Positions 17,408 through 30,883 of a stretch of DNA of 64,000 nucleotides are shown here, in pieces. The stretch is from positions 3,168,001 through 3,232,000 of the forward strand of contig OY969695.1 of the NCBI GenBank assembly GCA_963701965.1, read 5' to 3'. Below the pieces are notes generated by a model. The model was not told the origin of the DNA. It did no database searches and was given only the letters and a program-made list of their open reading frames with translations. This DNA comes from an uncultured Gemmatimonadales bacterium (lineage in GTDB: Bacteria; Gemmatimonadota; Gemmatimonadetes; Gemmatimonadales; Gemmatimonadaceae). The translations under genes were made by a program, and so were the position numbers. Positions within the stretch are counted from its first letter, which is position 1; every line of letters begins with the position of its first letter.

Positions 17408-18868
17408 TTATGGGCAGGTCTTGGTGAACGAGCCGCCGCGCGCCGCGGTTTCAGCGAACGGGATCGGCTTGTTCGTGGTGAAAAGGTCCTTCTGCGTCGT
17501 GCCAACCCATGTCTTGTCCTGCTCGGCGGCCACGCCGTACATCCGGATCGCGATCATGCGGTCCCCGCTGGCCTCGAACGCCGTCGAGATCTGCTGCTCG
17601 TGGAGCAGCGCGTCCCGGGTCGCGGTGTACGTGTTCCCGATTCTGGCCGTGGGAAGGCCGCCGACTGTCGTGCGCACATCGTTGATGAGCGTGGCCGCGT
17701 TGGTGAGGTTCCCGAGCCCGATCTGAATCTCCGCGCGAACGAGGACGAGCTCCTCGTTGCGCACGATCGGGATGAACGAGCCAGGCGTCGGGTAGTACGC
17801 GTACACGTACGGCGAGGCGGCCGACGCATACGTCGGCTGCTGTATCGGGTGCGGGTTGACCGCGAACTTCGTCTTCCAGCGTAGATCATTGATCGTGTCC
17901 TGGCTCGACGGAATCGCGTTGAGGACGATGAACGTGCCACCGTTCGCGTTGATCGGATTGACCTGATCGCCCGACGTCGCGCTGAAATTGTGCGATACGG
18001 TGAAGTTGTCGTTGGTGAATCCGCCGGACGGGGTCGGTGCAAGCGCCCCAGGGTTGTACAGCGCCGACGCGGCAATCGCACTGTCGGCCCGTAGGAGCGC
18101 CGCCTGGTCGGGCGACCCGGGCGACGATGCCGTCGGCGGGTTGCCACCAGGGCCCCGCGCGATCGCGTACGCCAGCTCGAGGCCCGCCTTGCCGGCCAAC
18201 GCGCGGTTGAACGCGGAGAAACTCGTGCTGGTGGCGCTGACCGCCTTGAACCCCGACGGCAGGTTGACCGGGAGCGGAGTCGACCCCGCTGTCACAAGCT
18301 GCGCGTTGGCCGAGTCGAGCAGCGCGACGATGTACTTCCACCCGTCGCGGACGCAGAGACCAGGCGGCGGGCCCGCCGGCGTTTGCGGCATGATCGCGAT
18401 ACCGGCCGTGTCATGATCCTCGGCGATCATCATGTAGTTCAGCGCCTCGATTGTCTGGACGACGCCGACGATCGCCGCGTCCTGCGCCGGCGAAAAGGCC
18501 GGGACCACGCTGGGCAATGTCGCAATGATCTGATGCGCCTGCAGGATGTCGGTGTAGAACTCGGCCCAGGCGACATTGAGGCTCCACGCCGGATCGATGG
18601 GCTGCAGGCCCAGCTCGTACAGAATGAACCGGGGCTCGGTATTCGTGTAGTTGGCGCCGTCGCGGGCGAATCCCGTCGCGTCGACGAGATACCCGAGGAG
18701 ATCGTTGCCGCGCATCTCGCCGACGAGACCCGTCATCGCGTTCTGAACACCGGGAGGTGAATTCGGAATCGACGTCGGCGCGGCGTAGAACGGGATGTCG
18801 GTATCCTTGCATGCGGCCGGTGCGATCAGCGTGATCGCGGCGACGGCCAGTGTGAGTGAGCGTCTCAT
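17408..18868 (-). CDS. susD: SusD/RagB family outer-membrane lipoprotein
   Basis: Lipobox APAAC; IPIVRNEELVLVRAE...INDVR; directly after susC. Confidence 0.88.
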   Translation of the reverse strand: MRRSLTLAVAAITLIAPAACKDTDIPFYAAPTSIPNSPPGVQNAMTGLVGEMRGNDLLGYLVDATGFARDGANYTNTEPRFILYELGLQPIDPAWSLNVAWAEFYTDILQAHQIIATLPSVVPAFSPAQDAAIVGVVQTIEALNYMMIAEDHDTAGIAIMPQTPAGPPPGLCVRDGWKYIVALLDSANAQLVTAGSTPLPVNLPSGFKAVSATSTSFSAFNRALAGKAGLELAYAIARGPGGNPPTASSPGSPDQAALLRADSAIAASALYNPGALAPTPSGGFTNDNFTVSHNFSATSGDQVNPINANGGTFIVLNAIPSSQDTINDLRWKTKFAVNPHPIQQPTYASAASPYVYAYYPTPGSFIPIVRNEELVLVRAEIQIGLGNLTNAATLINDVRTTVGGLPTARIGNTYTATRDALLHEQQISTAFEASGDRMIAIRMYGVAAEQDKTWVGTTQKDLFTTNKPIPFAETAARGGSFTKTCP

Positions 18869-18870
18869 GG

Positions 18871-28802: not shown

Positions 28803-29771
28803 ATGCTGCCTTTTCTGTTGTTGGCTCTCGCGACCAAGACCGAGACGATCCGGATTCCGAGCCCCGTTTCCGGGCTCGAGTTGGCCCTGCATCACGAATA
28901 CCTCGTCGCGTCCCCAGCTCAGCCGCGACTGGTGGTGCTGTTCGCCGAAGGCAGTGCCGTTCCGACGGCCGGGAATGCGGCGTTCAAAATCGATGGCCTG
29001 TCGTGGATGGACGATCTCGCGCGACATGGCTACGACGTGTGGTCGATCGACTATCTGGGGTACGGCGCATCCAGTCGATACACGGCTCCAGGCAGCGACA
29101 GCGCGGCGGGGAATGCGGCGGCCTGCGCGGCGCAGCTCGAGCGCGCGGCTCGATTCATCATCCAGCGGCAGCACGTCCCCAAGCTGTTCGTCATTGGCGA
29201 CTCGTTCGGCACCGAGGTGGCGGGCGTGTTCGCGACGCACTCGGGCGAGCTCATCGATCGGCTGGTGCTGTTCGCTCCGGTCACTCCGCCACCGACCGAC
29301 ACGCGCGGCTTCGCGTCAGCAGATACGACGCCTGTCGCCGCGCACAACTTCGTCACGCCAGAGGACATCTGGACGGCGTACTCGAGCTGGCTACCGAAAG
29401 GTGAATACGCCGGAATCGATCACGATTCGTTCATCCATGTCTGGGGTCCCATGTACCTCGCGACCGACCCCACGAGCGGATCGCGGACGCCGCCGAGCGT
29501 CCAAGTCACGACCGGGCCCGATGCGGACGACCGGGAGATCGCCGCGGGGCGGTTCCCCTACGATCCGGCGCAGATCCGCGTGCCGACGATGATTCTCATG
29601 GGCGAATGGGACAGTATCGCGACGGAGGACGGCGCGCAGCGCTTGTTCAACGGGCTCACGCAGGCGCCGCTCAAACGACGCGTCGTCATCGGCGGCGGGA
29701 CACACATCGTTCAACTCGAGCGGCGGAGCCGGATGCAGGCGTTTGAAGAAGTGCGCGCGTTCCTGAAATGA
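28803..29771 (+). CDS. Alpha/beta-fold hydrolase, probably exported
   Basis: DYLGYGAS, GDSFG nucleophile elbow, GEWD, GTH. Confidence 0.85.
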   Translation: MLPFLLLALATKTETIRIPSPVSGLELALHHEYLVASPAQPRLVVLFAEGSAVPTAGNAAFKIDGLSWMDDLARHGYDVWSIDYLGYGASSRYTAPGSDSAAGNAAACAAQLERAARFIIQRQHVPKLFVIGDSFGTEVAGVFATHSGELIDRLVLFAPVTPPPTDTRGFASADTTPVAAHNFVTPEDIWTAYSSWLPKGEYAGIDHDSFIHVWGPMYLATDPTSGSRTPPSVQVTTGPDADDREIAAGRFPYDPAQIRVPTMILMGEWDSIATEDGAQRLFNGLTQAPLKRRVVIGGGTHIVQLERRSRMQAFEEVRAFLK

Positions 29772-30883
29772 CAGAGGCCAATATCCGCAATAGTGGAGGC
29801 GCTGCCGACGACGTGGAGACGCCGGCTGTGCTCATCGACTTGGATATCTTCGAGCGCAATCTGGACCGGATGGCCGCGTACACCAGTGCGCACCGGCTCA
29901 GCCTCCGCCCCCATGTGAAGACGCACAAAGCCCCCGCCGTCGCTCGCCAGCAGCTCGGGCGTGGCGCCGTCGGGCTCACGTGTGCGACGGTGACCGAGCT
30001 GGAGGTGATGGCCGCCGTCACCGACGATCTGTTGTTCGCCTATCCGCCCGTCGGCCCACGACGACTGCTCCGTCTCGAAGCGGTCGCCAAACGCCGACGA
30101 CTCACGGTCACCGTCGAATCCCAGGAGGCGATCGACGCGCTTGCCATGGTCGCGTGCAGCGCCAAGCAGCGCGTCCGCGTCCTCCTCGAGATCAATGTGG
30201 GGATGCACCGAACCGGTGTCGCCGGCGTGCACGAGGCCGTGGCTCTCGCGCGGTACGCGGCCGAACGGTCCGAGCTCGAGTACGCCGGCATCGCGTACTA
30301 TCCGGGCCACATCCGCCAGCATGTCCAATCGCAGGATGCGCAGTTCGAGACGCTGAATAGTCACCTCGAGACCCTTGTTGCCGCCCTCGGCACCGCCGGT
30401 TTGGCCCCGGGGATGGTGAGCGGCGGGTCGACTCCGACGGTGTGGCGGACTCACGAGCTCGCAGGAACTACCGAGATCCGGCCGGGCACGTACGTATACA
30501 ACGACGTCACGACAGCGGCGATCGGCGCGTGCGCCTGGACCGACTGCGCGGCGACGATCGTCACGACGGTGGTGAGCACCGCCGTCGGCCAGGCGGTCGT
30601 CGACGCCGGGACAAAGGCTCTGGGCCGAGAGCCGATCCGCGGCGTGGCGCAGGATGGCTTCGGGGTGGTCATCGATCACCCGGAAGTGACGGTCGCCCGC
30701 ATGTCGGAAGAACACGGCGTGCTCGATCTCGGCAGCACATCGTGGCGACCATCGATCGGCGACCGTGTGCGGATCATTCCGAACCACGTGTGCGTCGCTA
30801 TGCACCTCTACGACTCCGTCCATGCCGTGCGCGATGGGAATGTCACAGCCGTGTGGCCGGTGGCGGCGCGCGGACGGTTATGA
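29768..30883 (+). CDS. D-threonine aldolase / D-serine dehydratase (DSD1) family PLP enzyme
   Basis: RPHVKTHK, GGSTPT, EIRPGTYVYND, SEEHG, PNHVC; ATGA-coupled to the hydrolase. Confidence 0.92.
   Translation: MTEANIRNSGGAADDVETPAVLIDLDIFERNLDRMAAYTSAHRLSLRPHVKTHKAPAVARQQLGRGAVGLTCATVTELEVMAAVTDDLLFAYPPVGPRRLLRLEAVAKRRRLTVTVESQEAIDALAMVACSAKQRVRVLLEINVGMHRTGVAGVHEAVALARYAAERSELEYAGIAYYPGHIRQHVQSQDAQFETLNSHLETLVAALGTAGLAPGMVSGGSTPTVWRTHELAGTTEIRPGTYVYNDVTTAAIGACAWTDCAATIVTTVVSTAVGQAVVDAGTKALGREPIRGVAQDGFGVVIDHPEVTVARMSEEHGVLDLGSTSWRPSIGDRVRIIPNHVCVAMHLYDSVHAVRDGNVTAVWPVAARGRL

Follow-up and report, generated by a model that had tools for sequence, protein, structure and literature searches.

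What chemistry is left to an enzyme of the dehydrogenase E1 fold, dependent on thiamine diphosphate (ThDP), when the histidine that defines its class is gone, and what pathway might such an enzyme serve? The question is raised by ten contiguous open reading frames at 17408..30883 of a 64,000-nucleotide stretch of DNA (the window; positions 3,168,001 to 3,232,000 of contig OY969695.1, assembly GCA_963701965.1) from an uncultured Gemmatimonadales bacterium. They encode a SusCD pair, an NPP-type phosphodiesterase, a YkvI-family membrane protein, a flavin adenine dinucleotide (FAD) amine oxidase, E1α and E1β, a LysR regulator, an α/β hydrolase and a DSD1-family pyridoxal phosphate (PLP) enzyme (Table 1). 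A sequence-only reading had proposed a single LysR-controlled system for the import and catabolism of a non-glycan substrate. We find that the ten genes do not make up a single conserved system: at the core, lysR faces E1α-E1β-oxidase-ykvI, a secreted phosphodiesterase probably going with them, and judged from sequence the E1 is an E1-fold enzyme without βHis128 inside this conserved five-to-six-gene cassette, to which local genes have been added. The gene order, operator, conservation, purifying selection and active-site changes described below are established, and we are highly confident that the cassette is a real unit.

The starting point is a comparison with the heterotetrameric E1 components of the pyruvate, branched-chain and acetoin dehydrogenases (1W85, 1UM9, 1NI4), with which the window's pair shares the fold (for E1β, a template-modelling score of 0.95 and a root-mean-square deviation (rmsd) of 1.3 Å to 1W85_B), 42-44% identity, the ThDP motif, and the equivalents of βGlu59 and αHis271. 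The pocket, however, is rebuilt. Relative to 1W85, His128 of E1β is Met129, Phe82 and Phe85 are Leu83 and Val86, and Thr124-Pro125 is Gly-Gly; the nest of residues around the histidine is thereby replaced and Arg122 is gained, whereas Glu59 and Glu28, the acidic wire residues αAsp151, αGlu154 and βGlu29, and the diphosphate motif are all kept. The setting differs as well: in place of E2 and E3 the operon holds an amine oxidase and YkvI. Nor is the window's protein an isolated oddity. Among the 119 nearest E1β proteins (counting the window's own and one 99% identical to it, and leaving out P0015, a duplicated sequence of 480 aa), 75 belong to a clade whose residue at position 128 is Gln (52), Met (22) or Thr (1); the other 44 all keep His128. 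Glu60, the βGlu59 equivalent that activates ThDP, is present in 75/75 clade members; Arg122 is likewise invariant in the clade (75/75), and the same position is Gly in 44/44 of the next proteins. In E1α, His242 on the outer loop, the equivalent of αHis271, is invariant in 21/21 aligned sequences, and the protein scores below the pyruvate dehydrogenase (PDH) equivalog cut-offs (TIGR03181, 263 against 411; TIGR03182, 269 against 394).

Published mutagenesis gives these substitutions a functional frame. According to a study of the Geobacillus stearothermophilus enzyme (PMC2663715), all known E1s retain His128, which is needed as the proton donor in reductive acylation, and the H128Q mutant retains 100% of the activity with 2,6-dichlorophenolindophenol and 3.8% of the PDH activity, compared with 0.9% and 0.7% for H128N. 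The engineered H128Qβ substitution is the commonest natural state of the clade (52/75), although the mutant carries that single change and the window has Met together with many further changes in the pocket. The His128 position also aligns with a transketolase histidine, His481 in yeast, which is Gln428 in the active human enzyme (PMC3352088), and lipoyl-free ThDP catalysis evidently tolerates Gln at this loop position; transketolase is nonetheless a distant comparison, with about 25% identity and another quaternary structure, and the window offers no sugar-transfer context. Since the Gln-type clade members match the tested state that decarboxylates and does not acylate, we think it probable, on sequence grounds, that this E1 is independent of E2 and likely cleaves the product of the oxidase non-oxidatively. 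Several points weigh against this. E1β passes the PDH E1β family cut-off (341 against 321); His128Asn and His128Ala nearly abolish even pyruvate decarboxylation in the reported experiments (PMC2663715); Met lies outside the published substitutions, and its effect could be worse; and the Arg122 loop has a predicted local distance difference test (pLDDT) score of 56 in the predicted structure, which leaves its placement tentative. Source databases label the clade proteins as PDH or acetoin dehydrogenase subunits, labels that are probably wrong.

How far does the genomic setting of this enzyme hold? A pattern specific to the E1β clade, scanned over two collections, returned 29 loci, 4 from genomes and 25 from metagenomes; only 20 of these 29 have at least 1.8 kb downstream, and several repeat one organism. 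Two of them, the metagenome contigs L023 and L030, share the gene order lysR, E1α, E1β, oxidase and ykvI with the window, identities being 74-89%, and the DNA common to all three is one 5.3-kb block, 81% identical and including the operator, that ends at the ends of ykvI and lysR, with unrelated genes beyond the lysR stop in L023 and L030. The ratios of nonsynonymous to synonymous substitution (dN/dS) of its genes, 0.11-0.18, indicate purifying selection. For SusC, SusD, NPP, hydrolase and DSD1 the count is 0/29 clade loci at E<1e-4, many of the loci being short. The expectation that the genes would co-occur across genomes was therefore realized for the E1, oxidase, YkvI and LysR and, by shared contigs, for NPP, but not for SusCD, the hydrolase or DSD1. 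The cassette is rare and patchily spread. The best full-length E1α match in 60 relatives was at most 44%, a search of 400 genomes of the family yielded no oxidase and one of 60 relatives no NPP, and ykvI was not found in 53 genomes of its own family, with matches of about 40% in 50 of 250 genomes of the phylum; the sets searched for E1α, oxidase and NPP include an unpublished genome (G012), and none of these negatives rests on it alone. In a plasmid collection, the His-less E1β is absent among the 12 best rows (at most 51%), and three oxidase relatives adjoin TRAP or ABC transporter genes without an E1. Judged by titles and the openings of abstracts, the literature searched, which included few subscription papers, contains no description of the cassette or of a single-pair oxidase-linked E1. 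Among sequencing runs, no RNA run was listed as containing the sequence; one DNA run yielded short, nearly identical pieces at low depth and, as it may be the source itself, was left out of the count.

The cassette also appears to carry its own control element. The same 48-bp element had been proposed to precede both susCD and the E1 operon, and two copies are indeed there, but they are not exact (40/48 identical), and copy 2 overlaps the start of lysR. A full match to all 40 shared positions occurs at these 2 sites alone in the 5.12-Mb genome, the next-best site matching 30/40 and the remainder at most 24; among random 48-mers, 1/60 had a match of at least 40/48 elsewhere in the genome. Copy 1, ahead of susC, has the same orientation, and each copy contains an ATC-N9-GAT-type dyad, which we take to be the LysR recognition site, with a shared box, possibly a -10 element, at equal distance to its left. 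A T-N11-A dyad, the motif of such sites, lies in the divergent gap and overlaps the regulator's start. The repeat thus looks like a LysR operator, and the shared operator that had been suggested finds support in its restriction to two sites and its conservation with the cassette in L023 and L030. A sigma-70 scan detected no promoter and an Rfam scan gave no match. A CACATT box 6-7 bases before the E1α ATG (window 27765-27806), kept in the window, L023 and L030, suggests a leaderless transcript. The site that matches 30/40 positions (G000:C1:1185549-1185596) is AT-rich, intergenic and just upstream of an ABC-permease-like gene; it could represent a weak third operator or belong to another LysR protein.

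Of the columns that the three orthologous operators conserve, the operator copy before susC matches 39/43, against 1/5 of the variable columns (p 0.002, with the element's bounds having come from the repeat finder), a pattern that fits a maintained site, and for this reason it is likely that SusCD was drawn into the regulon in this lineage by gaining an operator copy. The pair itself is native to the genus and, of the genomes examined, bears the operator in this one alone: a close susCD pair is present in 5/5 genus genomes, the susC and susD orthologues in G005 (82% and 75%) sit in a tandem susCD locus, 12 susD-like matches occur in the window's own genome, and none of six fetched susCD loci contains the operator (best 15-16 of 27). 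Compared with the SusCD polysaccharide utilization loci of Bacteroidota, the SusC protein is above its family cut-off and is followed by a lipoprotein, with a regulator site nearby; the locus differs in having no glycoside hydrolase and in that its pair, a native paralogue that has been relocated, does not belong to the conserved cassette.

Hydrolase and DSD1 were added locally; at no other locus were they found together with the cassette. DSD1, closest to D-threonine aldolase, has relatives (55-56%) in 5/5 genus genomes, away from the cassette and operator; in 3/5 these adjoin genes for a 2-keto-3-deoxy-6-phosphogalactonate (KDPGal) aldolase and a probable 2-keto-3-deoxygalactonate (KDGal) kinase, the latter named from a motif. 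Such DSD1-family genes beside KDPGal aldolase and probable kinase genes (G000:C1:1118044-1120609, L053, L054, L057) form a candidate amino-sugar-acid deaminase route. The hydrolase has a partial 47% match in only 1/5 genus genomes, and the genome-wide repeat search found no third operator copy ahead of its gene; a 42% paralogue, fused to a periplasmic binding domain (PF13458), is encoded at window 49213-51288. The idea that SusCD, hydrolase and DSD1 are conserved members is not supported, their closest genus relatives sitting elsewhere without cassette or operator.

What might the oxidase and transporter supply to the E1? Structure searches place the oxidase in the general glycine/sarcosine oxidase fold and no finer (4YSH: Z 36.7, rmsd 2.6, 357 aligned, 21% identity). 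A phmmer search of the PDB gave no sequence relative, and no characterized close relative was found. Its scores lie far below family cut-offs (AmaA, L-pipecolate oxidase, 116.5 against 600; TIGR03329, PbfC, 111 against 633, the latter among its two best NCBIfam matches). PF01266-family enzymes do deaminate phosphorus-bearing amines in 2-aminoethylphosphonate clusters, where PbfB, PbfC and PbfD yield an aldehyde for a downstream enzyme (PMC10590968); unlike those clusters, the locus has no phnX- or phnW-type gene, and its NPP lies far below the PhnA cut-off. With such scores and no phn genes in the locus, an aminophosphonate pathway was not adopted. The YkvI protein has no Pfam match and is named by Atlas (230/256 features). 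Relatives of about 50% identity lie in D-amino-acid and peptide clusters (with dipeptide epimerase and DUF1611), not in phosphoester clusters, which counts against a phosphoester substrate. The locus resembles the sphingomonad clusters of this kind (48-52% to their transporter) and the Pyrococcus horikoshii BAR cluster in having a YkvI-family transporter and, nearby, a TonB receptor, but differs in lacking epimerase, racemase and DUF1611 and in having a ThDP enzyme and a phosphodiesterase.

The phosphodiesterase is likely an old member of the cassette, since its relatives share contig sizes with those of the core and the trees match. The longest contigs carrying E1β, oxidase and NPP relatives are of identical size in two cases (12,583 and 340,858 bp), as are those of oxidase and NPP in another (80,675 bp) and of E1β and oxidase in four more (6,678, 9,364, 6,029 and 72,219 bp), and no such match arose in 12,321 and 11,766 other pairs. 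The E1β, oxidase and NPP trees (the first by a quick method from 61 selected rows, the others by FastTree from 30 and 27 rows) split alike, with the proteins of the 340,858-bp contig on a deep branch and those of the 12,583-bp contig nearer the window. The protein keeps Thr73, the nucleophile, and Asp216, His220, Asp261, His262 and His383. Some observations pull the other way. Matching sizes indicate a shared contig, not adjacency. The first metal-ligand Asp, present in 118/119 relatives, is Asn32 in the window copy alone, and the window's enzyme may be impaired. L023 and L030 lack NPP and have instead, directly after ykvI, an exported β-propeller protein with a phosphoesterase-family stretch; the family match is weak (27.6 bits over 25 positions), and an orthologue of that protein lies about 52 kb away in this genome. 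The orthologue is encoded just past the window (G000:C1:3235907-3245717), together with a sigma/anti-sigma-like pair with another susCD and a second Na+/H+ exchanger.

Overall, we lean, on sequence evidence, toward a model in which the E1 would act without E2 on an oxo compound derived from an amine or amino acid that is imported and probably phosphorylated. The exported phosphodiesterase would free a small phospho-amine from a larger ester, YkvI would import it, and the FAD enzyme would deaminate it to an aldehyde or 2-oxo acid. The ThDP enzyme would then form the enamine and resolve it without lipoate, either by protonation, as a decarboxylase, or by elimination of a β-phosphate to give acetyl-ThDP. 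LysR would activate the leftward promoter and repress its own gene, and the operator-bearing native SusCD would add outer-membrane uptake in this genome. A leaving group at the β position is known to let the enamine collapse to acetyl-ThDP without a redox partner; phosphoketolase and sulfoacetaldehyde acetyltransferase are examples. That the substrate is a phosphoester is a tentative proposal, and that it is specifically a phospholipid head group is doubtful. It is equally speculative that the clade comprises lipoate-independent, E1-fold ThDP phospho-lyases, in which a phospholipase-C-type cut and deamination would be followed by elimination of a phosphate held by Arg122, with acetyl-ThDP passing to acetate or acetyl-phosphate; on that reading the head group freed could, at long odds, be of the phosphoserine or phosphoethanolamine type.

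Other explanations deserve consideration. In one, the E1 would be an oxidative decarboxylase with a shifted substrate, drawing in trans on one of the genome's sets of E2 and E3, with αHis242 covering for the lost proton donor. The genome has 3 E2 genes, the nearest 894 kb from the locus, and its other E1 and E2 genes lie at least 70 kb apart (70.7 kb from the 2-oxoglutarate-type E1 to its nearest E2). We have for this reason rejected the missing nearby E2 as proof of E2-independence; independence from E2 is supported by the loss of βHis128, a reason not given in the earlier reading, the absent neighbour being weak evidence alone. The invariance of αHis242 and the residual 3.8% activity of H128Q (PMC2663715) would also suit borrowing, as would L026, the 1/29 clade loci in which a motif scan finds an E2-like gene, directly after the His-less pair. 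L026, however, also carries a normal His-bearing pair that can use that E2, and the uniform replacement of His128 across the clade, set against its uniform retention in the neighbours, extends to the hydrophobic nest described around it (PMC2663715); we consider borrowing unlikely. Slightly less likely still is a rewired pair with no catalytic cycle of its own, acting as a ligand sensor or binder or functioning solely as mixed tetramers formed with a normal E1 pair. Met is unable to form the polar contact found necessary in the mutagenesis (PMC2663715), Phe85 is lost, and in 14/29 loci (several of them repeats of one organism) the His-less pair follows a normal one. Yet here and in L023 and L030 it stands alone with the oxidase and transporter, it keeps Glu60, the diphosphate motif and the acidic residues, and its dN/dS is 0.11-0.15. 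In L011, L013, L016, L024, L026, L027, L031, L034 and L038 a normal E1α/β pair (HHSQS motif) lies immediately before the His-less pair and in many cases faces a DeoR regulator; mixed tetramers are possible in such loci. Distant clade members, from Rhodospirillales and Burkholderiales by record title, neighbour DeoR, 2-hydroxyacid dehydrogenase, 3-hydroxyacyl dehydrogenase or transketolase genes; in L012 (5734-7737), L017 and L035 a single His-less pair is convergent with transketolase and 2-hydroxyacid dehydrogenase genes, and no second E1 pair or E2 was seen in those three loci.

The remaining alternative returns to all ten genes as one pathway for a conjugate of a D-amino acid or D-amino sugar acid, with SusCD, hydrolase and DSD1 as working parts. 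It draws on the induction of PH0137, a YkvI-family protein, by D-allo-Ile (PMC13628549), and on the association of YkvI relatives with dipeptide epimerase, DUF1611 and a TonB receptor; the DAO-family fold of the oxidase, the likeness of DSD1 to D-threonine aldolase, the overlap of its gene with that of the hydrolase downstream of lysR, and the operator before susC all fit it. The comparative evidence nevertheless makes it improbable: the block shared with L023 and L030 stops where lysR stops, SusCD, hydrolase and DSD1 were found in none of the 29 clade loci, many of them short, the DSD1 relatives of the genus live apart from the cassette, and no third operator copy lies ahead of the hydrolase gene. 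The cassette, with probably E2-independent ThDP chemistry at its centre, is the preferred account.

The ten genes fall into four transcription units: susC-susD (-), NPP (+), E1α-E1β-oxidase-ykvI (-) and lysR-hydrolase-DSD1 (+). Gaps are 2 bp for susD-susC, 227 for susC-NPP (divergent), -32 for NPP-ykvI (convergent), -23 for ykvI-oxidase, -1 for oxidase-E1β, 9 for E1β-E1α, 72 for E1α-lysR (divergent), 56 for lysR-hydrolase and -4 for hydrolase-DSD1. The contiguity and family names proposed from sequence alone were borne out, weakly for SusD (PF07980, 17.2 bits against 23.1; SusD structures alone matched in the PDB, at E 0.15-0.26). Pfam and NCBIfam likewise confirmed the claim that the ten genes include no glycoside hydrolase, E2 or E3, and a non-glycan module is supported, no glycoside hydrolase or lyase genes having been found.

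Table 1. Genes and predicted operator copies of the locus, in window coordinates.
Feature	Position	Strand	Basis
SusD-like lipoprotein, 486 aa, lipobox Cys20; native paralogue family	17408..18868	-	position, lipobox, weak matches
SusC/RagA TonB-dependent transporter, 1004 aa	18871..21885	-	TIGR04056 432 > 368; TIGR04057 55.9 > 46.2
Operator copy 1 (predicted LysR site), 58 bp before susC ATG	21944..21991	.	ATC-N9-GAT dyad and second box
NPP-type phosphodiesterase, likely signal peptide	22113..23429	+	PF01663
Membrane protein of the YkvI family with 8 or more hydrophobic segments; predicted to import amino acids or amines	23398..24525	-	Atlas 0.98
DAO-family FAD amine oxidase/dehydrogenase, glycine-oxidase fold, uncharacterized branch	24503..25819	-	PF01266; structure match 4YSH
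E1β: Met129 for His128, Leu83/Val86 for Phe82/Phe85, Arg122; Glu60 kept	25819..26808	-	
E1α: ThDP/Mg motif (GEG...ENN), Arg66, loop His242 kept	26818..27777	-	
Operator copy 2 (predicted), in E1α-lysR divergent gap, overlaps lysR ATG	27807..27854	.	conserved in L023, L030
LysR regulator, 298 aa, conserved with cassette	27850..28746	+	
α/β hydrolase, Ser134-Asp270-His301-like triad; accessory	28803..29771	+	
DSD1/D-threonine-aldolase-family PLP enzyme; accessory	29768..30883	+	

Several neighbours of the locus may be mentioned. A CPA1 Na+/H+ exchanger gene (window 15743-17341) follows susD on the same strand after a 66-bp gap; in G003 the orthologue (88%) is located apart from susCD. On the other side, an iron/haem-type ABC system (window 30890-37014), comprising a TonB receptor, periplasmic binding protein, permease and ATPase, is interrupted by a receiver-PAS gene (32706-33656). 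An aldehyde dehydrogenase gene at window 37027-38529, 6 kb downstream, is a candidate taker of an aldehyde product of the E1.

A natural clade that is under purifying selection, lacks His128 and occurs in operons without E2 would mean the E1 fold doing different ThDP chemistry, which would be relevant to enzymology and biocatalysis alike. The cassette places an upstream enzyme, a transporter and a regulator, all candidates, beside the His-less E1, and in this way makes the question of its substrate approachable. If the model is true, it would give a function to the uncharacterized YkvI family and would show a transporter joining a regulon through the gain of an operator; and the phospho-lyase reading, were it to hold, would constitute a route, not described before, for organic phosphorus and nitrogen in soil.

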